Shown here one piece after another: positions 9,020 through 62,370 of a stretch of 64,000 nucleotides of DNA. Below the pieces are notes generated by a model that searched no databases, was not told the DNA's origin, and saw only the letters and a program-made list of their open reading frames with translations. Position numbers and translations under genes: made by a program. Numbering within the stretch: position 1 is the stretch's first letter; every line of letters begins with the position of its first letter. Source of the stretch: Trichoplax sp. H2 (Eukaryota); contig NOWV01000001.1 of NCBI GenBank assembly GCA_003344405.1, forward strand, positions 1,240,001 to 1,304,000. The letters are read 5' to 3'.

Positions 9020-10426
9020 AGCTAGGTTTCAATGCGGTCATAGTACTAGATTTAGAGTATCATAGCCTACTACATACCTTTATTTAGCCGTCAACCTATT
9101 CTTTGATACTTTTACACTACTGCTTTAACTCGGAATCATAAATACATCTAACTAACAGTTGATTAAAGGGAAAATACCAGGATCTTTAGTGAATCATAGT
9201 AACTAGCCAACCTATTGTCACGGTGCGAACTACCGTGAAGAAATAGATATCTAAATTTGGTTAATATAATATAGTGATATTATATTACTGTTGATAGATT
9301 ATGTTAAGTACTTGTCGTACATTTGTAATACGTACCGAACCGAACTACGTACACTGCTGTATGTTACCATTAATACGCATTCTTACTGTATTCATTATGT
9401 ATAAATAGCCCTGCCTAATTTACAATAAAGGTTTTTCTTACAAACACGTTACAATTACAACTAGTTACTTACAATAGGAATTACTCTAATTATAAATGTG
9501 TTACAGTAAATTTATTGCTGTGCTGTAATGTGAGCTGAAATGATTCTGTGAATGGACATATTGTAGTCCGACTGTGAAAAACTAGTTAGTAGATGTTCTC
9601 ACCCAAGTATTTTTATAAGATGACTTGTGAATGTTAGCTGCTGTAGAAGGGTATATAAACCCGTCAGATAGTTGAATAAAGCAGTTCTCAATTGTATAGT
9701 TGTTTTAACGTAGAATCAAAGGCGTCTAAATTCTTGTGAGTAGGGATACTGAATCCCGGAGACTATAGAGATTTAGAGATTTGTTTTACGTTATCCTTGT
9801 CACGAAGTTGGTTTGTGACACCTATACTCTGATATTTCACTGTAGATTGCTACTTCAACTCTAAATCGTGGACTACTACGTACATCTTGACGGATAATTG
9901 ATTAAAGAGTAAGATTTCAGGATCTTTAGTCAATCGTAGTAATAAACTCCTAAACCCATTCTGAGACACTTTTAGATTGCTGTTTTAACACTGAATGATA
10001 GACTACTAAACGTATGTNNNNNNNNNNNNNNNNNNNNAGCTAGGTTTCAATGCGGTCATAGTACTAGATTTAGAGTATCATAGCCTACTACATACCTTTA
10101 TTTAGCCGTCAACCTATTCTTTGATACTTTTAGACTACTGCTTTAACTCGGAATCATAAATACATCTAACTAACAATTGATTAAAGGGAAAATACCAGGA
10201 TCTTTAGTGAGTCATAGTAACTAGCCAACCTATACTCTGATATTTTCACTATAGATTGCTACTTCAACTCTAAATCGTGGACTACTACGTACATCTTGAC
10301 GGATAATTGATTAAAGAGTAAAATTTCAGGATCTTTAGTCAATCGTAGTAATAAACTCCTAAACCCATTCTGAGACACTTTTAGATTGCTGCTTTAACAC
10401 TGAATGATAGACTACTAAACGTATGT
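9020..10426. repeat. Near-identical duplicated segment spanning a 20-N gap (probably two haplotypes assembled in tandem)
   Basis: 9020-9215 plus 9826-10017 match 10038-10426 with only a few substitutions or indels (e.g. ACACTAC/AGACTAC, GAATCAT/GAGTCAT). The N run is at 10018-10037. Confidence 0.85.
9216..9820. mobile_element. 605-bp insertion, probable solo LTR, with 5-bp target-site duplication
   Basis: Starts TGTCAC (9216) and ends GTGACA (9820): TG..CA ends and a 6-bp terminal inverted repeat. Flanked by CCTAT at 9211-9215 and 9821-9825. The empty site with a single CCTAT is at 10229-10233. Internal TATA-like GGGTATATAAA (~9649) is followed by AATAAA (~9675). No coding capacity. Confidence 0.8.
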
Positions 10427-12212
10427 TAGCTAGTAATTGATGAAAGAGTTAATTCCTGGGACTAGCGAACCCTAGTAACTAGTCACTTACAATCAGCCTA
10501 TACAGTAGAGAAACAAATCTTAATTTACTCCTATCAATTCATTATTTTTGTTTAATAATAATTTATATAATATGCCAAATATACACGTATATTAACAGTT
10601 GAAATAATTCAAATTTGGTGAATATGATAGCAATACACAGCTTCAGGTAACAAACTAAGTGAATGACTCATTGAGGCAAATATGAATTAGACCAATCTTT
10701 CATGTAGGTATAATGTCGACGATAATGAAGTTCATTGATTGTATCTAAGTTTTTTCTAGAAAATTACCCCTAATTCTCCATCACTCACAATGCGAGTGAA
10801 AGAAATTTATTAAAGTGAAGATCTTTTTGAATATGCAGTACTGTACTGCAAAGTTTCCATATTTTATACCAACTACGATACAAAATAAAGCAGTATTTTT
10901 AATCTTTCCAGTAGTCACTAGTCAGTAATGCAGTTTATAATAAGTAAATTTTATTGTTACTGTACCGGATACGATGATAAAAATTTATCGTCACAAGTGT
11001 ACCTGCAAATAAAATTGCGGAGGGGGAAGGAACGCCTTCTACGATAACAATTTAAAGGTATGGTTGAGGAATCATCTTGTTCACCTATAGGAATCTAAGC
11101 GAGGTAGAATTGTATCTTATTGCTAGCCCTTTTTTCTTGATCCGCTTTAACAGTAACGATAGAGTACTTTCCAAAGCTGTTAATCAATAACTGAAGCGCA
11201 GACAATCAACGTGCAATTGCTCAGTATCTTGGAAATACGCATGTAATATTGATTATTACATTGAACTATGAAATATTGGACCTATACGACTGGCATTTAG
11301 CATCTGTCAGTTGCAATAGATCGAGAAGTATAACAATTTTTGGTATATTAGTGGCTGATTGCTATCAGTACAATTTTGGAATAAAAATGCCGGAATCGCG
11401 CATTTTAAACGAAGCATTTGCCAAAAAGTAAATAGCTTAGAATTAACATTATACGGAAATTATGCGAGAACAGTTCAACTGTTATGCTATATCGTAAGAT
11501 TGTGCAAGCATTTCTACAGCCAAAGGGCACCATCCTATTTTAATCTTATAAATTAAGATCTTCTTCTGCAGTAGCGTTGGAATAACATTCGAGGATAAGA
11601 TACAACATTGCAGTTGCACATTCTGTATGACTACACCTTATTACGAGTGCCTTCATCTTCTTATTATAGCTAATCGGCATTCATACCGGTAGCTACCTCA
11701 GCGCATAAAAGACTGCGGTTGAGAGTTCATTCTAGGTATAGACATGGTGTACAGTACAGACGACCATACAAATTGTATAAATACAAATATCACATTGATA
11801 ATCTTCAAATGCATACCATAAACAGTGAATCATTGCAGTAATATTTTCACTGCTAAAGCGTGAATTGCGCGTGCATGAGAGGGAAGAGAAGAACCTTATT
11901 TAGAACCGAAAGACGCACAGCGCGTTCCTATAACGCCACACGTCTCGGGTTATAACTTATGAGCATCCGTGAGAGCTATTAGCCACTGAGTCTCTCCTAA
12001 TTTACAATAGATATACAACTCGAAAAAAGAAGAACGTCTTTTGGGGGAGGAGGAAGAGAGAGAGCTTAAGAGTTCGAGGGAGAAAGTACAAATTATTTCT
12101 CGAGTCCTCTCATGGACTGCCAGAAGAAAATAGCCTACTTGCAGTGAGCTCTTTGATGAATGACATCTGACAGACTGGCAGACAGATGCACCGAAATGAC
12201 AGAGCTATGACT

Positions 12213-23000: not shown

Positions 23001-26000
23001 TAATTTACCTATTAATATGATCTTTATCCCTTCCTTTAACTCGATTAGAGTCATTATGTAAATTATTGTATGCTTGATTAGCAGAATGATGACGCTATTA
23101 TAGAAAAAGAATTCCACACTGTGTGGAGATATCACTTAAGGCTAAATTAGAGTTCAAGGATTGAAAAGAAAATAAACTACAATCTAATCATCAAAGAGGA
23201 AAAAAGGTGGAGAATCAACAACAAAAAGAAAAAAATGAGGGGAAATGAAGTAACTTTATCCTATCAATAGATGTAGTTAAATGATGCTAAAATAAAATGC
23301 AACAACAATAATAATCAAGACGAGAATTGAAAAAATAGCTATACATTAAATAGAAAGAAAAGAAATGAATGGACATCAACTTCTTCTCTTTTTGCCTTGT
23401 ATTTTTTGCCACTGTTGAATTTATGACAATATCCAGACATTTCTATTGTCATCTTTATTTTTTATACTTATATGATGTTAATTGATTCACCTGAGGGCTT
23501 TGTTCTAGCATTTTTTATACTCTAAATCGATTGGCATTTTCGACTTAATGTGCCTGTAACCATTTGGCCTCCGCCCCGGCTCGAACGCTATGAATAAGAG
23601 CATCTTGTCTTGACTCGTTGTGTCATATACTTTTGTTTACGCCAACAGTTCAACAAGAAGTGGTTAAGAAGAGGAAAAAGAAAGATTGATTATCATTTCC
23701 TTCATGCTGCCTACTGTCTACATATGATCAATCATTGATCTTCGCTCGCGCGCGCCTTCAACGTAACAACTAGTCTCTATTCTTCCACATCGGCTATCAT
23801 CGATTATTCTTCAACCAGCAACTATTTCATCCTTTGATTGAAATTTTCCAGCTATTACCTATCCAATCTACTGCTTAAGATTCAAATTCTTCTTAACACC
23901 AGTGGTAAGTATCAATAATTTGTTTTATCATCCATTAGCTTATCTTCTATTCAATTGCTATTGAAAGCCTATAAGATAAAGATTCCCATCATGATGATGA
24001 ATAGGATTGATTGAATGATGATATCTAGCGTTTATAAACCTTTACTTTTCTCCAATGCTTACCCTTCATGCAATCCAAAATTCACCATTCCATTGACTAA
24101 CCACGTAAACATATCATGTATGCTATTAAAAAATAGGATATTGCTATTCTTTACCTTATTCGATTACAATTTAGATCAATCAATCAATGAGCTAATGTAT
24201 CCTTCCTAGTTTAATTTATTTGCAAACAGAAAAATAGACTCTGTAACTTTATTACCGGATATTAATTATCCGATCACATAATTTACCGATACAGTAGATC
24301 ATGTTGCTATCCCATAGTAGAAAATAGACTCGATAAGATTGTAATTGCTCAATAGTAATTTATATCATCAGTCAATCATCACAGATTAATGCAAATATTT
24401 TGGGGGAATAACTTCGCTTTTCCATTATCGTCTACTGTTTAATTTCATGTTGATCTCGATCCATTAACTATCTTTATTGACTAATAATATGGTATTTAAC
24501 AAGTAGAAACCAAGTATTAGACCTCATTGACTATTTTAATCGTTTTACTTTGGATCGAAAATTACTATTACAGCTAGAGTTGAGTGGAGAATTTATTCAA
24601 CATCAACTCGATGACTATTGAGTCGAGTTGATATTAATCAAAGGTAGCAGCTATGCTAATACCGATTATCATGGCTGGGCAAATGGAGCCATACACCATC
24701 ATCATTTTCATCCTTTTGCATGATGATTTCAACAGTAACCAAGTCTTACGCTTTCCTCTATTTACACTTGATGTTTATTATACCATTATGCCTGCCGATA
24801 GTAGAACTCCTTTTGTCCAATTGGCATCTTTTTTTTGTTAGCCATTTGCCAACAATTCTTACTAACTGATTATAATACAAAATATGGACTTACTAATCAC
24901 CGATCTTTACAACGTTTACCTTATGTATTGTCTCCAGTTTAGATTGTTACTATTAAACTTCGATTCCGTTATACTACCACTCTATCTATGGCGCTTTGTA
25001 GGCACCCTACTTACAATTTAATCATTTCAATAACTCTCTCTAATAGTTTGTATTATACATAGACAAATTAAAGATTACAATTTTTATATTAGTTAAATTG
25101 AATCACGCTGATATTTACATCTACGATAATTTAACTTAATCAACGGGAGATCGATCGCCAGCTTATTGATATGCAAAATTAAATATAAAGCCACTACGCT
25201 ATCGTGGACCAAAGTTCCTCTGTCTTAATACTTATTCCCATTTTAATAGCTATCATGCATATACAAGCTAATTGTTGTAGGTTTTAGCAGTTTACGATAA
25301 ATTTTCACAGTATCGCAAATGATTCAAATCAGTGACTTGTATTTCGCTCTGAGTGCTGAAATGGACCGTAAATTAGAAAAAAAAGTCTAAAATAGTCAAA
25401 GGCAATGAATAATCTTGTTACTAGATTCATCAGCTTTCAAACAGTAAATTATGAAAAATAATCCCATTCTTCCCAGCGTTTCGCCAAAGTATAATTTTTA
25501 TGTTTGCGGAACGCTGATTCTTCCTTCTTTCCGATGGTAAAAAAACACGTAGAAAAATGAGAAATGGCTTTATTGCCAAAATTAATAATGTAATTACTGC
25601 TGGTCGGTAATAATTTGCCTTTCAAATTAATTCATTATCGGTGGCTAATAATACATATTCCTATTCAATTGGGTGATAGAAGGAGATCTTCCACCCCTCT
25701 TAACATTACAAAACCGAATAGAGGATACAACGACTGCCCTCCACTTTGGATTAATTCATTATAATTATCAGCGATGGTAGATTAATTAGCAATAGGCTAT
25801 CAATTACCCTAGTCACATTTACGAGCTATCCGATTTGCTAATTCTACGCTATTATCTCCAATTTCTTAATGCAGTAACAATGAATACTGCTGTACTCCTT
25901 GACTCTTACTTTTATTTCTTATTTAACCCCTATTACGGTAGATAGCGGCAGCAGAAAAAATAGCCTTACTCTTCTTATCCCTCATTTTGGAAAGCAGTCA

Positions 26001-27189: not shown

Positions 27190-27680
27190 ATTCATGATAT
27201 TCCTTTCTTAATGGGTTGACTATCAAGCCAATTAAAATTCTACTTTATCCATGATATTTCTTTCTTAAATTCGTTGACTAAAGGAATGCAGGCCAATCAA
27301 AAATTCTACTCTATCCTCGAAATTCCTTTCTGAAATGGATTGAGTAGCAGAATGCTAGCTAATAAAACTTTTACTCTACCCATGATATTCCTTTCTAAAT
27401 GGACTGACTGGCAGGATATTAGCTTATAAAAATTCTACTTGATCAATGATATTCCTTACTTAATTATATGAGTTGACTAGCATTAAATTCTACTTTCCCT
27501 ACAATATTCCCTTTTGATTAATTGGATTGACTAGCACGATGCAATCAAAAATTTTACTTTGTCCATGATATTCCTTTCTTTAGCAGATTAACTACTTAGT
27601 ATGATGCAAGGTATAAAAATTCTATTTTATCCATGATATTGCGTTCTTTAATTAATTGACTAGCGAGCCAATAAAAATTC
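27190..27680. repeat. Degenerate tandem repeat, ~62-bp unit, ~8 copies
   Basis: Recurrent AAAATTCTACTTTATCCATGATATTCCTTTCT...TTGACTAGC with CATGATATT-like cores near 27192, 27250, 27320, 27381, 27447, 27503, 27565 and 27633. Confidence 0.8.
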
Positions 27681-30801: not shown

Positions 30802-32373
30802 ATGGCAAATCATACATCCATCAAACGTAAACGTGATGATCATCATCAGGATGAATTGATAGATAAAAGCAAGGATAATAGCAATAATAACAATCATCAT
30901 GATGTGAAAAATTTACATGATGGTTCAAGAGATTGTAACAAGGAAAATAATCATTTGAAGTTAGTAGTCAATGGTCATACAAGAAAGAGTTTAAAATCCA
31001 GTCATAAATATGCTAGTCGAGGCGAACAAGAAGAGGATTATCATGATACTCATGAAGGTAATGATCATGACATGGAAGAAAACAACATCAGCATTGATAT
31101 GAATCCTTATCATCATCATCAACATTCTATTAAAAAGGAAAAGGCGATCAATAACGATAAATTAAATGCTAATGTCGACCATAAAGGGTTACCAACATCG
31201 TATGCTGATGGCAATAATGATGAAGAAGATGACGAAGATGATCGTTGTCATCATGATCTTGACCATAAAGACGACGATATGGATGATTTATCTCAATGTC
31301 AAGATTTAGATGATCAAACTCAAGGTGGACATAAAAAGCTACAAAAGCATAACTTAGTTAAGCCACCCTATTCTTACATTGCATTAATTACTATGGCAAT
31401 CCTTCAATCACCCCAAAAACGCTTAACCTTAAGTGGTATATGTGAATTTATTATGAGCCGTTTTCCCTTTTACCGCGAAAAATTTCCCATATGGCAAAAT
31501 TCCATACGACATAATCTATCGTTAAATGATTGTTTCGTCAAGATACCGCGCGAACCTGGCAATCCAGGCAAAGGAAATTATTGGACTCTCGATCCTGCCA
31601 GTGAAGACATGTTTGAGAATGGCAGTTTTCTACGACGTCGTAAACGATTTAAACGACAGGCATCGTCCAACGAATTAGCCGCCTATAATATTGCTGCACC
31701 TCCCTATCATCCACATCATCCACATCATCCACATCATCCTCATCCACCTAATCCATCCACTTTAAGCGCTTTTAATCCAATTGCCACACCACCTTATTTA
31801 CCTAGAGCAGCCACGGCAGCTATGGTAGGCGCAGCTCATGCATCTTTAACACCTATTGCAACATCCGCAATGGCAGCCCAAGTAGCGCCGCCATCAGCAG
31901 CAACTATAGTTCAAGCAACACCAATGCTCAATCCATCCATGTTAGCTGCAGCACCAATGTCATCTAAAGCGAAAGAATTACTCAATTCAGCTTATGCTCA
32001 GGGTCAACAAGGCAATCTTGATGCTACCAAACAACAAGGATCATCATCGCCCTCATCCAAAGATTTCTCCATTGAAAATTTAATTAGTACTGACAAGAAA
32101 AATCAATTTCAAGACGATATTAAAGCATCACCAATCCCTTATAGCATGAAAACATCATCGACCATGACACCGGTATTTCAGGCTATGTATGGCCAGCAAC
32201 AAGCTCTTCCAACTTCAGCATTCCATAATCAATCTTTAATTCGATCTGTTGTTCCTCCCACACCATACTTAACTTCAGCAGTCATGCATATAGATCCCAG
32301 TAAGCAATTTGCCGCATCACCTTACATGCCTTGTCCACCTTACCATTTAGCCATGGCTAATGGATGGCGTTAA
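30802..32373 (+). CDS. FoxD: Forkhead box D transcription factor, single coding exon, 523 aa
   Basis: First ATG at 30802 within the 30709-32373 ORF. Forkhead domain (~31357-31656) [100 protein letters not shown] is class D. An eh1 motif FSIENLI lies at 32065-32085. Confidence 0.96.
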
Positions 32374-42800: not shown

Positions 42801-43179
42801 GATTGGAAGCCCATTACACTATAGAATCAACCATAGTGATTAGAACTGAATAATCTGATATAAAGTCCCCGTGTTCTACCATTCTATAGTAAGTGCAGGT
42901 TGCAGCTTGTGCCATGTGATTATCTGAGGTATATTTTATATAGCTTGTATTTTATGCGTTAGCTTACGTACGCGCATGTTGTAGTCGATAGGGAACGAGT
43001 GAATACTAATGACAGAGCTAAATACGACATCATACTGTCTCCGTATAGCAATTGCCACTGAGTTTATTTATTTATTTTAGTTTTTTGTCATTTTAATGAC
43101 ACGCATAGTATTTAAAAAATTTTAAATATGTAATACTAGATCAGATTCTATGAAATGTATTTTAAGTTATTTAATTAAA

Positions 43180-43850
43180 ATTAGACTATGTTAAACATAT
43201 TTACTTTAAAGATTGAATACACCAATAGTTATGAAATTTCCTTAGTATAGTGTAGTAACTGTTAATCAAGACTTATCATTGACAGACTTGCGGTTATCAA
43301 TTTATAGTCTGGTGTAGTGAGACTCCTTGCCGCTAATTCATTCAAATTAGACCATGTTAAAGATGTTTATTTTAAAGATTGAATATGTCAACAGTTGTGA
43401 AATTCCTCAGTCTAGTGTAGTAACTGTTCGTCAAGACTCATCATTCACAAACACGCGCTTATCAATTTATAGTCTGGCGCGGTAAGGTTCCTAGTCGCTT
43501 AACTATAATTCGACAATGTTGAACTATAGACTACTAGATTTATCTAATAGTTCATGGTGAAACATATTTTATTTTTAAGATTGAATGCGTCAATAGTTGT
43601 GAAATTTTCTTCGTACAGTATAGTGTAATAACCGTTAGTCAAGACCCGTCATTGACAGACACGCGGATTATGAATTTATAATTTTGCACGTGAAGTTCCT
43701 AGTTACTTCATTAAAATTAGACTATGTTTAATCGTGGACTACTAGATATAACTAGATATAGCTAGATAAATCTAGTAGACCATGGTTCAACATTTTATTT
43801 TGAAGATTGAATGCGTCGATCGTTGTGCCGTTCGCTTAGTATAGTGTAGC
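43180..43850. repeat. Degenerate tandem repeat, ~170-220-bp unit, 3-4 copies
   Basis: Recurrent AGACYATGTTAAA...AAGATTGAAT...AATAGTTGTGAAAT...TAGTGTAGTAAC...TCAAGAC near 43180, 43346, 43550 and 43780. Confidence 0.75.
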
Positions 43851-44729
43851 AAACACTTGATGCATGCTAGTATTAAAGTTAGACAATCGGAACTGGAAAT
43901 AAAAGCGTACTACACTACAGTACAATCGCTTTCTGCACAAGACTGTAAAGCGCAAGCGCGTCCAAACTTTGCGGACGCTCTCACCAAAGTCACCATACAG
44001 AAATACTGTACAGTACTGTACACTAGTGCAGGGCTACAATACTGTACACTGTGCAGTATATACTGTAGTCGACCGTCATTAGCTGCATGATGACAGTGAT
44101 ATACAACATTGGTTTCTATGGATTTCAGCGCTGAACAAAATACTTGCTATGATCGACAGTTGATCACTATTTTAAGCTGCTGACTACCACTGAGGAATGA
44201 AGATAATATGAGTCATATAATCAATCAAATACGTCATGTTGTCGTTGTTATTCTATTTCAAATTCAAGTTCAAGTTATAAGTTATTAGAATGACAACATT
44301 GCCAGTGTTGGATCTATCTATCTATACTGTGGATTAACCATGACGCCAGTTATAGATTTATTCCTCTTTGTAGCCTACTGTAGAGTGGAATTTGTTTTGT
44401 ATGCAAAACAGTAATACGTATGATACAGTCAATGTGTAGTGAATGAATATCAATAACGATTGCTACATTTGTAGTACAACTTGAACAAGATTGTACTCTT
44501 CCCCTCTCTGTTGTTCATAAAGTGTAGCTTATAAATGATTGATGGTATATCCTCATCATCAATACCGTAATTAAGCCTGCAATTTTTCTCTTTCATAGTA
44601 AAACACTCTCCCGACTCATAAATCAACTGCAGAACGAAAACACCAAACATAGTCCAAAACAAGACGCTATTTAGAAGTGAAACTGGTTTGGATATAAACA
44701 ATCTTTTTCTCTAACGTCATGGCCTTTAG

Positions 44730-48300: not shown

Positions 48301-51300
48301 TTCGGATTTAACGGGATTGCCAATGGCTAATTCATCATTACTGGATGAAGGTACAGCTGCAGCGGAAGCTATGTCTTTGTGTTTTCGGTAAGAGCTATTC
48401 ATCATAGGATGCCTTACTTTATTTCTTGGCACATTATATTTTAGATATGTCGTGCATGTATAGAAGAAAGTTATTAATACCCTTGTCCATAAATCGTTTC
48501 TATTCAAATTTTACCAAATTTACAGTACAGAAATATACTACTGCAGGTTATATTTAGTAGCTTACATCAGTTTACACTACACTACAGATAAGCATCGGAT
48601 GTTTTACGGTACATAGTACTGATATAACTTTTAATCTGCTGTTCATCATATGCAGTGCATAAAGCAGCACATTAGAGCAATGTAGCAAATAATTAGTCCT
48701 AATATTCAGACTTCCTTAGGTTTTCAGTTTTCGAACTTGAACCAATACGTATTCATTAATTATATATTGTACCAAGTACATGCATATGTACCATATAGTA
48801 CCTAGGATTAAATTCATGTTGAAATGCGGGGCAAATAGAAGATACTCAAAAGTATTAGACGCTACTCAGCTAGTATAGCCTTCTTAAAAAAGAAATTTAT
48901 ACAAGCTAGGGTTGATGTCATGTAAATGAGTGAATTACTAAACGCTTATATTTTGTAATCCGAATGTTATGTTCAGTTTTTCTAGCATTCAGTAAGTGCA
49001 GTAGGAATTATTATTTAAATAATCTGTGCAACGATAGTACTATAGCTATCGAGATTCTTAAAGATCCAATAACATTTAAATATATTATCATAAACATCTA
49101 ATGTACAAATTTAATGATCCATAATTAAGTACTCAACGACCGACAATTTACACTCGGTATGTTTACATTGAGCACACTGATCTCTAGTACACCTCGATAT
49201 GCACTGCTGTTGTAGCCTATATGGGGACTAAATTAACTCCAATGCTGAGGTATTCGGTGTACTTACGGTGAAGTTCCGCTGATTCAATATTACTGTAACA
49301 CAAGTTCAGCCAAAAAAAACGTTAGGGGGCTACCCTAGCTTCACATAACCGTTCCTAATCAGGAGGCTCGCTAGATATCTCCCAATCGTTTCCGCTTTAC
49401 TATGCATAGGGTTGGACCCTATACAAACTGTATCAGCCGTATCTACGCATTTATAAGGTAGTCAATTATGAATTACTCCAATTATGGGATGCCGATGACG
49501 TCATCGATACAGATGGACATAAGCTTGGAAAGGGCAGCTTCTACCTTTAGTACAGTAGTCCCTGGTTACAGTATATGAATATTACTGCAAAGCCAGATTT
49601 ACGGTCTTACCACGGCATGAGTATACCTTACATTGACTTTTGAGTAGCGACATAGAATGCAATGATGGAAAAATCTGGAGTTATGAATAGCTAGGCTTAC
49701 AGTGATATCAAGCACGCCACTCGGTAAAGGGTAAATTGACTAAATTCTGTTCACTTAATCCCCTTTGCGTATATTATTTCATAAATAAATGCCGATACCA
49801 TTCCGTAATAGCCGCGATATATTCACACTATGGGCAGTAAATAGAAATACTATACTGGAGACTTAACAATTAATATATAACTTAAATTTTTAAACACTAT
49901 TATCGTTATAGGCATTTTATCAGAGATAAACATAAGAACAAATTCTTAGTGGATGAACAATGCCATCCTCAAACTATTGCTGTGGTCAAGACACGAGCTA
50001 GGTTAAGAGAATGGAAATTGACATATTTGCTTTTTCGCTATTGTTTACTATAGTTATTAAGAGATTAATTTATTGCTTGCTTTATTATAGCCCTGTTAAC
50101 GCGAAAGTAATTGTTGGTCCTTATAAAGACTTCGATTTTACTGGCGGTGACGTAGCTGGGGTACTTATTCAGTACCCTGATACCAATGGCGCTGTGTACG
50201 ACATTGAACAGTTGATACAAAAGATACATGAGAATGGGGTTTGTAGTAATTAATAATAATGTTACCTAGTGGACAAACTTTCAAAATCCACCAGCTTATA
50301 CAATTCTTATATGATGAACGGCAGGCATTAGCTGTTTGTGCAACAGATCTTCTTGCTTTAACACTCTTGAAACCACCCGGAGAATTTGGAGCTGACATCT
50401 GCATTGGTAACAGTCAGCGATTTGGTGTTCCTCTCGGTAATATTATTTGCTTTGCAATATGTTTAACTATTAGCTTTAATCTTATAGTTAGCTCTTATAA
50501 TAATGATACTATTTTTACACAAGCTATCTAATAGAAAATATGAAAATTATATTAAAAAGCCTGCTTAAATAGCATATTGTTTTAAAAAGCTCTTGTAAAT
50601 TTTCATAAAAGTGTTAAATTTCTGTGATGTAAACGTAGGTTACGGAGGCCCTCATGCGGCTTTTTTCGCTACTCGAGCAGATATGGCTAGGTTAATTCCA
50701 GGAAGAGTGATTGGAGTTTCTAAGTAAGAAAAATAATATTTTTACGCTTAGATTAAATGACTGTCACTTTCATTTTAAAAGTATTAAAGACTCCTTGCGT
50801 CATATTAACAGAGACACTGAAAACAATCCAGCCTTTCGATTGGCATTACAAACTCGCGAACAACATATTAGAAGAGCGAAAGCAACTAGTAATATTTGTA
50901 CGGCTCAGGTATATAACATAGTGATAATCACTTTAGTAACTAAAATTCATCAATGATCTCTACATTTTACCAATAAATAAATATTGTAAATCTTCTAATT
51001 ATAAATATCCCTGGTATTGAGAGGCAGTCATCGAGTTGCGTAGGAGTTACTAGCAAAGTGATGGTTTAATCTGTTATTTTCGCATCTCTAATGGCATATA
51101 AACTTACTGCAGGCATTATTGGCTAATATGTCAGCTATGTATGCAGTGTATCATGGGCCGAAAGGATTAAAAGAAATAGCTACAAGAGTACACAATGCCG
51201 CGTTATTGTTAGCCGAAGGTTAGATTTTAGCAGTTTTAACTTAAGCCGCATTTATCAATTGTATTTGCTATCTCACTAAGTACAGAACCGTTATTTTATA

Positions 51301-60216: not shown

Positions 60217-62370
60217 AATCAAAGTTACTCGCAATTTCGGGTTCAAGCAAGCCTCAATTGCTTTCGTCTAATAATCTAAGTATTCCAATCTCATTTAAAA
60301 GAGTTTACTTACTAATATAAATACCGTCTGAAAATTTTAACACACCAATAGTGATAACCGATGATCCGGTAAATTCTTACTATGCACCTTAAGTACAAGT
60401 GCTGGTACCAAATTGTCGCTTTTAGTCTGCCATGGCGATTTAATCAAGTACAAATGAGTATAATTTAACATTTCAATTTCACCGAGTCATCTATCAATAA
60501 TTTTTTAAACTAGTCGATGGCTATTTACCGTTACATTTCGCTTATTATTTTAACAGCTTTATTTGCGAATAACGTAATAAAAATTGTCTTCGTGGCATGT
60601 ACTGGATTGTAGTAGTCTTTAGCTACTCAATTTAGGGAGAACTAATTTTCAATGGCATGTATTTGCTAGTTTGTTAGTTTATTTATTGAGAGCCAACTTG
60701 AACCTAGTAAGAAATGAATCTAATCCTTTAATATCATATCATATCTATTTATCATTTTATCGATCGGGAACCCGATTCATATCTAGCAAGAAATAAGTTA
60801 TTCTCTTTCAAGTCGTAGTCTTTCATTGTCCGTATTGGGTAGAACTAATGCCTTATTATATCTACCGATAAGTTTATTAATTTATCGCTAAGGAATCCGC
60901 TCATATATAGTAAGAAGTAAATTATGATACCTGAAGTAGTAGTCTTTAAATAGTATTGTTACATAGAACCAATTCTATATTATATCTTCTGATGAGATTA
61001 ATTATCGATTGAGAATCCGCTCTTAACTAGCAAGAAGTAAATTATTACTCCTTAAGTAGTAATTTTTAAATACTTTACAACACAGAGTTAATTCGATATT
61101 ATGCCTCCTGATTCAATTATTAATTTATCGACGGGGAATAAACTATTATCTGACAAGAAGTAAATTATTTTACCTTAAAAAGTAGTCTTTAAATACTTGT
61201 ACTATGTAGAATTAATTCTATATTATATCTCCTGATTAAATTTAATAATTTATCGATAGGGAATAAGCCCCTATCTAGCAAGATAAAGAAATTACCGTAT
61301 TATTTTTGTTGTTATCCGTTCTAGTGAATTAAAATAGAACCACACGGTAAATTTCGCCATACTATGCTTGACAAGAGATCGCCTAATAAAAAGATAATCA
61401 ACTAGATTCATCCGGTGCTAATAGAACAGATCTGTAACTATCAATTATCTGATTTGAACGGAAGAGCAGTAAACAAATACCAATCATAACAGAGCTTGAT
61501 AAACAATACTGTGAAGATTAAGATTGCACTTTTTCTTATTCAACTTGAACTCCTGTCTAGTGTAATTGTTATCATTCAATTTTACAGCATTAGAGTTTAT
61601 TTCACACTCAATGATTCTTTTAACAGTAGATGCTTAAAATTGTATTTGAAAGATTATTCTTGCTGACAAGTTGAAACCCACGACTTTCTTACAGGATTGA
61701 TTATTGACATATTTAGAACTACGCTTGATTAGTCAAGAGATAAAAGCTCCATCTTCAGCTTATCCTCCCCCGTTACTACCGTTATTGATTATATATATAT
61801 ATATATATGTAACCTATACATATATCAATAACATAGACAATTTAAAGAATCAAGTTTAGAGATCATTAGCTGAAAAGTAAGAAAAAAATCGCGTAAGAAA
61901 TCTCCGGATATTATTTCAATTTCCTCCCCCACCCATCGGAAACTTCTAAAGAATAATATAGCTAATCTTATACCAATGAAGATGATAATCTACAGTTCTA
62001 TCAATACTATTTCTGGCGTATTGTCTTAGTATGAATACAATTATTTGAAATTTAAGTTTCGAGCTATCGATTGAAAGATCTGCCCAAATTTTCGACCGTA
62101 TTTCTCCGACAATCTGTTATTTCTGGTTGTTACTTTCGTTCGATTATAATTATATGTTCATCAAGAAGATTGTCAGATTTGGAAATCGAAGTTGCTTGCA
62201 ATTTCGGGCTCCTAATTAATCAAGTCTGGATTGCTTTCGTTCTAATAATTTGGGTAGTCCAATTTCATTCACAAGAGTTTACTTATTAATATTAATTAAT
62301 ACCGGCTGGAAATTTTAACACACTAATGGTGATAACCGACGATCCAGCAAATTCTTATTATGCATCCTAA
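60217..62370. repeat. Dispersed ~180-bp duplicate pair (60217-60392 and 62183-62370)
   Basis: Both copies share GCAATTTCGGG..TTGCTTTCGT..AAGAGTTTACTTA..AAATTTTAACACAC..GTGATAACCGA..AAATTCTTA. Confidence 0.75.
60760..61290. repeat. Degenerate tandem repeat, ~120-bp unit, 4-5 copies
   Basis: Recurrent TTATCG..GAATCCGCTC..TAGCAAGAAGTAAATTAT..AAGTAGTAGTCTTTAAATA..AATTCTATATTATATC near 60760, 60883, 61003, 61126 and 61251. Confidence 0.75.

Follow-up and report, generated by a model that had tools for sequence, protein, structure and literature searches.

The locus described here raises the question of whether an animal genome can carry a further paralogue of U6, the catalytic RNA of the spliceosome, with altered letters where U6 reads other RNAs. 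It lies in a stretch of 64,000 nucleotides from Trichoplax sp. H2 (contig NOWV01000001.1), which we call the window; coordinates are counted from its first letter. The window is animal DNA with a G+C content of 28-39%, and the candidate is a small U6-like RNA on its minus strand at 49316-49424. We believe, with about even confidence, that it is a diverged U6 paralogue that is still organised as a small-RNA gene for RNA polymerase III (Pol III) and is probably maintained.

Among spliceosomal RNAs U6 is the most conserved, and its only known paralogue with changed recognition sequences is U6atac. If our reading is true, a second maintained paralogue would mean that the spliceosome's catalytic RNA can be given new targets on more than one occasion, and the locus would be a natural experiment that separates the catalytic positions of U6 from those used in recognition. 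If the locus is only a relic, it is an ordinary U6 duplicate, though an unusually well preserved one. It also exposes a blind spot of standard annotation: both Rfam and a model built for this purpose miss the locus, and other paralogues of this kind would go unseen.

Gene layout and collinearity with U6

The argument for descent from U6 begins with the signals at the two ends of the candidate.

49316-49424, minus strand: candidate U6-like small RNA, predicted at about 105-110 nt, from the G at 49424 into a run of T; placed by collinearity with U6
49449-49455, minus strand: TATA box TATAAAT, first T at -31; read directly
49470-49491, minus strand: possible proximal sequence element (PSE) CATCCCATAATTGGAGTAATTC, -67 to -46; role suggested by position only
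49312-49319, minus strand: run of eight T (T8), like a Pol III terminator, at +106; read directly

TATAAAT at -31 together with T8 gives a layout like that of a type 3 Pol III gene, with the PSE placed by position only. Our U6 references were ten distinct U6-bearing loci from public collections that score 93-118 bits, the family threshold of RF00026 being 44 bits. Positions 1-65 of the candidate need no gap to align to U6, and the two RNAs have much the same overall length (109 nt predicted, 106 nt in the U6 of L004, an animal-type reference). In an ungapped scan of the window with these 65 nt of L004, the register starting at 49424 matches at 37 positions and is the sole maximum among 127,872; the next best has 32, the mean is 17.1 and the standard deviation 3.5. 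A match of 37/65 is expected 0.0105 times per window (Poisson-binomial) and was reached in 1 of 300 simulated windows. The family-wise p is about 0.003-0.01, for the animal-type reference only.

This best U6-like position is in register with both TATAAAT and T8, and both ends fit a U6 of 106 nt. The window holds 25 units in which TATAWA is followed at 110-175 nt by six or more T (T6); the candidate is one of them, and none of the others has, as it does, a hairpin of at least 8 bp where the 5' end is predicted. By our own estimate, the chance of such a coincidence of register is about 25 x 5 / 128,000. Because the collinear match is in register with promoter, hairpin and terminator, we consider it quite likely from the sequence that the candidate descended from U6.

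The core letters and the fold

If the candidate descended from U6, the next question is what has changed and what has been kept. The Rfam U6 consensus used for comparison was gAACgAUACAGAGAAGAUUAGCAUGG, in an ungapped register.

49404-49424, minus strand: 5' stem-loop of 9-10 bp with loop CCA, as U6 has at its 5' end; by folding
49385-49403, minus strand: single-stranded stretch like U6 positions 22-40, ending in AACGAU (49390-49385); by nhmmer alignment
49382-49384, minus strand: UGG in place of the ACA of the ACAGAGA box; read directly against the Rfam consensus
49378-49381, minus strand: GAGA, unchanged; read in the same way
49373-49377, minus strand: UAUCU (UAUC at 49377-49374, U at 49373) in place of AGAUU, the strand of helix Ia and U4 stem I; read in the same way
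49370-49372, minus strand: AGC triad, unchanged; read in the same way
49343-49371, minus strand: internal stem-loop (ISL) directly after AGC, 11 bp, loop GAUU, 2-nt bulge AC
49338-49344, minus strand: GUGAAGC, the U2/U6 helix II strand, as in animal-type U6; read directly
49323-49337, minus strand: possible extra 3' hairpin UAGGG/CCCUA, in an alternative fold of -31.9 kcal/mol where the minimum free energy (MFE) fold has -33.7

From 49390 to 49370 the minus strand reads AACGAU-UGG-GAGA-UAUC-U-AGC where U6 reads AACGAU-ACA-GAGA-AGAU-U-AGC. The original prediction reported just these changes, ACA to UGG and AGAU to UAUC with GAGA, U and AGC kept, and its coordinates on the minus strand are exact. 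The box itself, UGGGAGA at 49384-49378, matches ACAGAGA at 4 of 7 letters, and the candidate thus lacks the box of U6. The swap of helix Ia stands in that three of the four letters before AGC differ (GAUU to AUCU), although the register in which it was described is one base off. The further claim that the differences concentrate in these two segments fails: 28 of 65 positions differ from L004 and they are scattered over the whole RNA, in the 5' hairpin, the region before the box, the U4-pairing and ISL region and the 3' part. What is identical to U6 forms islands (AACGAU, GAGA, UAGC, CCUG and GUGAAGC). The 5' stem sequence, the ISL loop and the lower ISL differ from U6, and the 3' part is rearranged.

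The fold has fared differently from the letters in the ISL. RNAfold gives it -7.0 kcal/mol in the candidate and -5.3 in canonical U6, with the structures.(((((((((((....))))..)))).))) and.((.((...(((.....)))....)).)) respectively, so an AGC followed by a stem-loop with an asymmetric bulge is present as in U6. Every canonical ISL pair has a paired counterpart in the candidate. The upper CCU/AGG is identical in the two RNAs; elsewhere C.A has become U-A, G.A has become C-G, two G-C pairs have become G.U, U-A has become A-U and the bulged U is replaced by AC. According to a part of the U6 review in PMC5855946, U80C and U80A are tolerated in yeast U6 and tertiary structure outweighs sequence there. 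Changes that preserve pairs in this way argue, on the modelled folds, for an RNA that is maintained. The 5' hairpin is a new and perfect stem of 9-10 bp and not a worn copy of the U6 stem.

The chief alternative to a maintained paralogue is an inactive or decaying duplicate made at the DNA level, a pseudogene that is perhaps weakly transcribed and has no function of its own. We regard this as unlikely. Relative to a nearly invariant family the candidate has changed at about 43% of its first 65 nt, which is what such a duplicate might show, and the broken ACAGAGA box is essential according to the part of the U6 review cited above. Excerpts of PMC1761439 describe insect small nuclear RNA (snRNA) homologues that carry point mutations, have weaker promoters and were taken to be on the way to becoming pseudogenes. 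Nothing in the contig data described below indicates an abundant RNA at the locus. However, neutral decay would not be expected to leave TATAAAT and T8 intact, 65 nt collinear without a gap and the ISL fully paired. The 5' hairpin, for its part, is new rather than degraded. The signals and the collinearity, at such divergence, appear hard to reconcile with decay.

A second and weaker U6-like stretch lies at 11251-11342 on the plus strand. It is the top match of our own U6 model in the window (19.3 bits, rough E-value 0.13) and carries AUAUUGGACCUAUAC, UUAGCAU and GCAAUAGAUCGAGAAGUAUAACAAUUUUU, without an ACAGAGA box, an ISL or an upstream TATA box. Its 3' part matches two U6 references at 20-21 of 29 positions and is the sole top for both. 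It is possibly a decayed U6 copy, in which case it gives a picture of how decay might look.

The whole molecule has several further features. In its predicted fold UCUAGC, from the helix Ia and AGC strand, pairs with GCUAGG downstream, where canonical U6 pairs GAUU with AAUC. An 8-nt palindrome, AGAUAUCU, is found at 49380-49373, and a self-duplex of this region has -9.8 kcal/mol. The 5' and 3' hairpins share the arm words UAGGGU (49416-49421 and 49332-49337) and CCCUA (49407-49411 and 49323-49327), so both ends of the RNA are able to pair together, and there are alternative folds whose energies come within 2-3 kcal/mol of the MFE. These words resemble the telomere repeat TTAGGG and its complement. 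By reasoning only, we rejected a telomerase RNA: the arms hold AACCCUA and CCCUAAC, but these lie in stems and there is no template of one and a half repeats.

Weighing the resemblance against chance

It is important to realize how much weighs against our preferred reading, and the points in this section are to be read in that light. Much of it also speaks for the alternative that the locus is unrelated to U6 and that the likeness arose by chance in AT-rich DNA, whether the locus is a different small-RNA gene of the Pol III type or not a gene. Every model-based search fails. In the 401 nt and the 128 nt around the candidate, Rfam at E<=10 finds neither U6 nor U6atac. The single Rfam match in the 401 nt is an unrelated long non-coding RNA model (E 6.1), and the 128-nt gene matches no family at all, so neither 7SK, Y, vault nor RNase MRP RNA. 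Our own covariance model, made from the ten U6 references with 12 ISL pairs, gives 19 matches in the window at E<=10 and the candidate is not among them; scored directly, it receives 4.0 bits in a shifted register. With nhmmer and 12 U6 queries, of which 3 are identical copies, the candidate's E-values run from 0.66 at best to 57, and it ranks first for 7 of the 12. In a semi-global alignment to U6, 265 of 2000 shuffles do as well.

The strong ungapped result is limited to animal-type references. In a 46-nt comparison with ten U6 references the candidate is sole top with 2, tied for top with 5 and not top with 3. The core alone is at chance level: over the 23 nt of U6 positions 34-56 it matches at 14, and 58 of 127,956 window positions equal or exceed this. 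The gene signals are common as single words, with 346 occurrences of TATAWA, 127 runs of T6 or more and 14 runs of T8 or more on both strands, 49312-49319 among them, and the candidate was first picked by eye.

We nevertheless think an unrelated locus quite unlikely. A chance likeness would have to place the window's best U6-like position on one of the 25 TATA-to-T-run units, and on the sole one with a 5' hairpin, at a match level seen in just 1 of 300 simulated windows.

Other points also count against the preferred reading. The possible PSE is a guess by position, and the promoter element is in that respect unconfirmed; CATCCCATAATTGGAGTAATTC has no second copy in the window at up to 3 mismatches, and TCCCATAA within it occurs 3 times where 3.1 are expected. 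Overall fold stability is ordinary (z = -1.55, 17 of 200 shuffles as good). Stems of at least 10 bp are common in the window (85 hairpin records over both strands, of which 12 have at least three G-C pairs), so the 5' hairpin by itself is weak evidence. The ISL comparison sets one sequence against an invariant family and was fitted to the structure by the analyst.

Nothing points to an abundant small RNA either. The stretch is present in twenty public runs, of which two are recorded as RNA. We compared the contigs of four runs, the two RNA runs on record and two guessed to be RNA, over 1,201 nt. One of the guessed runs spans this stretch in a single contig and the other three have gaps. The RNA-library contigs extend over the entire host intron and mark out no discrete candidate gene, and contigs cannot reveal RNA ends or levels, so they are no evidence either way on expression. 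The four runs differ at 49164, 49301, 49311 (T9 in place of T8 at the terminator, in one RNA-library contig) and 49491; none of these lies in the RNA body and they are too few to mean anything.

The scans made for relatives of the candidate gave no orthologue. A scan of metagenomes for variants without ACA gave three matches (L001, L002 and L003) and no orthologue; L001 and L003 are chance matches in GC-rich bacterial sequence, and L002 comes from another organism. A scan of viral contigs with a degenerate core plus GTGAAGC gave 0 matches. The literature we searched, which is limited in coverage, holds no U6 paralogue with an altered ACAGAGA box besides U6atac.

L002 deserves a description of its own. 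Its minus strand carries, at 240-420, a U6 that scores 96.9 bits and has GCAGAGA where ACAGAGA is usual and AAUACU where AAGAUU is usual. This U6 abuts the 3' part of a tRNA that has a long arm and a truncated T stem. The arrangement resembles a chimera of tRNA and U6, or a retrocopy.

Partner RNAs and the idea of a variant spliceosome

The original prediction went further and proposed that the candidate is the catalytic snRNA of a variant spliceosome or trans-acting ribonucleoprotein (RNP) not yet described, with U4-like and U2-like partners of its own and donors with CCA at +4 to +6. The proposal is one special form of our preferred reading, possible but unsupported, and we find it very doubtful. 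Its U4-like partner is predicted to have a 5' end of about UUCCUAAUCAGGAGGC and a stem I strand complementary to AUCUAGCG. Several facts do favour it. The candidate retains GAGA, AGC and a bulged ISL but has other letters for ACA and in helix Ia, and there is a possible extra 3' hairpin. U6 and U6atac differ from each other in the same manner, with catalytic parts kept and the ACA box and helix Ia changed.

Under the preferred reading the steps would be as follows. A U6 gene would have been duplicated and have diverged while retaining its Pol III small-RNA layout; its Pol III transcript would be about 105-110 nt long; the proteins that normally handle U6 would be recruited through the 5' hairpin and the U tail; and the RNA would switch between its ISL and pairing with a U4-type RNA, like U6 and U6atac. 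If it acts in a spliceosome, it would need another class of donor, because with UGG for ACA and three of four helix Ia letters different it should not read normal GUAAG donors as U6 does. From the letters, UGG would pair with CCA at intron positions +4 to +6.

Real partners give a mixed answer. We took U2 and U4 genes that stand beside U6 on eukaryotic contigs within bacterial metagenome-assembled genomes (MAGs). The loci L004-L014, filed under bacterial MAGs, are mis-binned eukaryotic DNA, because the contigs carry eukaryotic clusters of genes for U1, U2, U4, U5, U6, 5S rRNA, signal recognition particle RNA, U3 and tRNAs. The candidate's U4 stem II strand differs from that of canonical U6. 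The strand 49372-49345 nonetheless pairs with the 5' 22 nt of the U4 of L011 at -24.6 kcal/mol (0 of 2000 shuffles as good, mean -9.6), in the same register as the cognate U6 of that U4. Cofolding gives the usual junction of stem I and stem II with a gain of -4.7, compared with -4.1 for the cognate pair. With the consensus-like U4 of L014 the same strand reaches -13.6 kcal/mol (274 of 2000 shuffles as good), which is no significant pairing and a point in favour of a special partner. The candidate fits one of the two real U4 RNAs tested, neither of them from this animal. The U4 of L011 forms as good a pairing with the candidate as with its cognate U6, so in principle the candidate needs no dedicated U4-like partner. 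The U4 partner needed appears to have a 5' end of a kind that occurs in natural U4 RNAs, and the resident U4 might fill the role or might not.

The pairing with U2 is less telling. AGC/GCU of helix Ib is kept. AUCUAGC can pair with GCUA(A)GAU of canonical U2 in a register shifted by one base, in which AUCU lies on the AGAU of GCUAAGAUC. Of the 256 tetramers, 136-185 would pair as well in such a shifted helix Ia, so this says nothing either way. In helix II, GUGAAGC and the 5' end of the animal-type U2 of L010 form 7 bp at -9.9 kcal/mol, compared with -14.4 for the cognate pair.

The remaining facts stand against a variant spliceosome. The original prediction saw no convincing partner gene in the window, and Rfam at the gathering threshold agrees, finding no gene of the U2, U4 or U6 families there; nor does the window hold other segments complementary or similar to the candidate. 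The sole confirmed intron junction here has an ordinary GTAAGA donor. No such system was found in the literature searched, and after decades of snRNA surveys the prior is low. The pairing logic behind the proposed interpretation is sound. In its strongest form, to which we give little credence, this would be a third U6-type catalytic snRNA of an animal lineage, with a metal-binding core of GAGA, AGC and bulged ISL, a donor read by UGG and a U4 partner of the CAGGAGGC type. That it would serve a specialised, lineage-specific spliceosome or a related RNA-processing RNP seems to us just as improbable.

A 13-nt word is common to positions 24018 and 47651; the surroundings are dissimilar and we take it as chance.

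The locus and its surroundings

The candidate lies antisense inside an intron of a multi-exon glycine dehydrogenase gene on the plus strand, which extends from about 45.4 to 54 kb of the window.

48388-49910, plus strand: host intron of the glycine dehydrogenase gene, GTAAGA...TTATAG; from exon peptides and sequence

The donor of this intron is of the ordinary GTAAGA type, and its junction is visible as a loose end in the contig sets of two RNA libraries. Just upstream of the possible PSE is a perfect 14-nt palindrome, CGATGACGTCATCG, at 49493-49506 (-69 to -82), which contains TGACGTCA, a word like a cAMP response element (CRE). A comparison with the insect proximal sequence element A (PSEA) was dropped, since the positions given in the excerpts of PMC1761439 did not fit. 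According to a part of Hertel et al. 2009 (PMC2655684), Trichoplax has two U6 genes and a clear PSE, the other major and minor snRNAs being single genes.

In the 64-kb window an Rfam scan at gathering thresholds gave 0 matches to any family, and a tRNA search found none. A single-exon open reading frame of the FoxD forkhead type at 30802-32370 on the plus strand has long tails rich in His, Asn and Pro. It has no close relative among named sequences: the best of these align to 17-61% of the query, with the forkhead domain at the centre of the aligned part. Because they match little beyond that domain, the sequence points to an isolated lineage, and this isolation together with the base composition would suggest an early-branching animal such as a placozoan. 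An assembly gap of 20 N at 10018-10037 sits between two pairs of direct repeats (9020-10426; 183-196 nt, 98% identical). There are three diverged tandem arrays, at 43168-43852, 27231-27662 and 60841-61247, with units of about 120-230 nt that are 60-86% alike.

Comparison with known systems

Which known RNA does the candidate most resemble? With U6 (RF00026) it shares the upstream TATA box, the T-run end, the size, the 5' stem-loop, AACGAU, GAGA, UAGC, the bulged internal stem-loop after AGC and the GUGAAGC of the 3' part. It differs in having UGG for ACA and UAUC for AGAU, another stem II strand and loop, another 5' stem sequence, AUAGUA after the 5' stem where U6 has AUAUAC, and scores below every model threshold.

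Variant U6 genes and pseudogenes are likewise diverged copies of uncertain function. In these few positions are changed and ACAGAGA is kept, whereas the candidate has changed at about 43% of its first 65 positions and, despite this divergence, keeps its gene signals and fold. A human variant with nine substitutions and one deletion is cited in the part of PMC5855946 used here.

In the same part of that review U6atac is presented as a diverged paralogue of U6 whose ISL is homologous and which carries an additional 3' stem-loop. U6atac (RF00619) offers the closest parallel for the pattern of change: the AGC triad and a homologous ISL are kept, and the 5' splice-site box, helix I and the stem II strands are changed. 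The two are not the same RNA. U6atac has no 5' stem-loop and the candidate has one, Rfam gives the candidate no U6atac match at E<=10, and the extra 3' hairpin of the candidate appears only as an alternative fold. The candidate's box, UUGGGAGA, also differs from what we take to be the box of U6atac.

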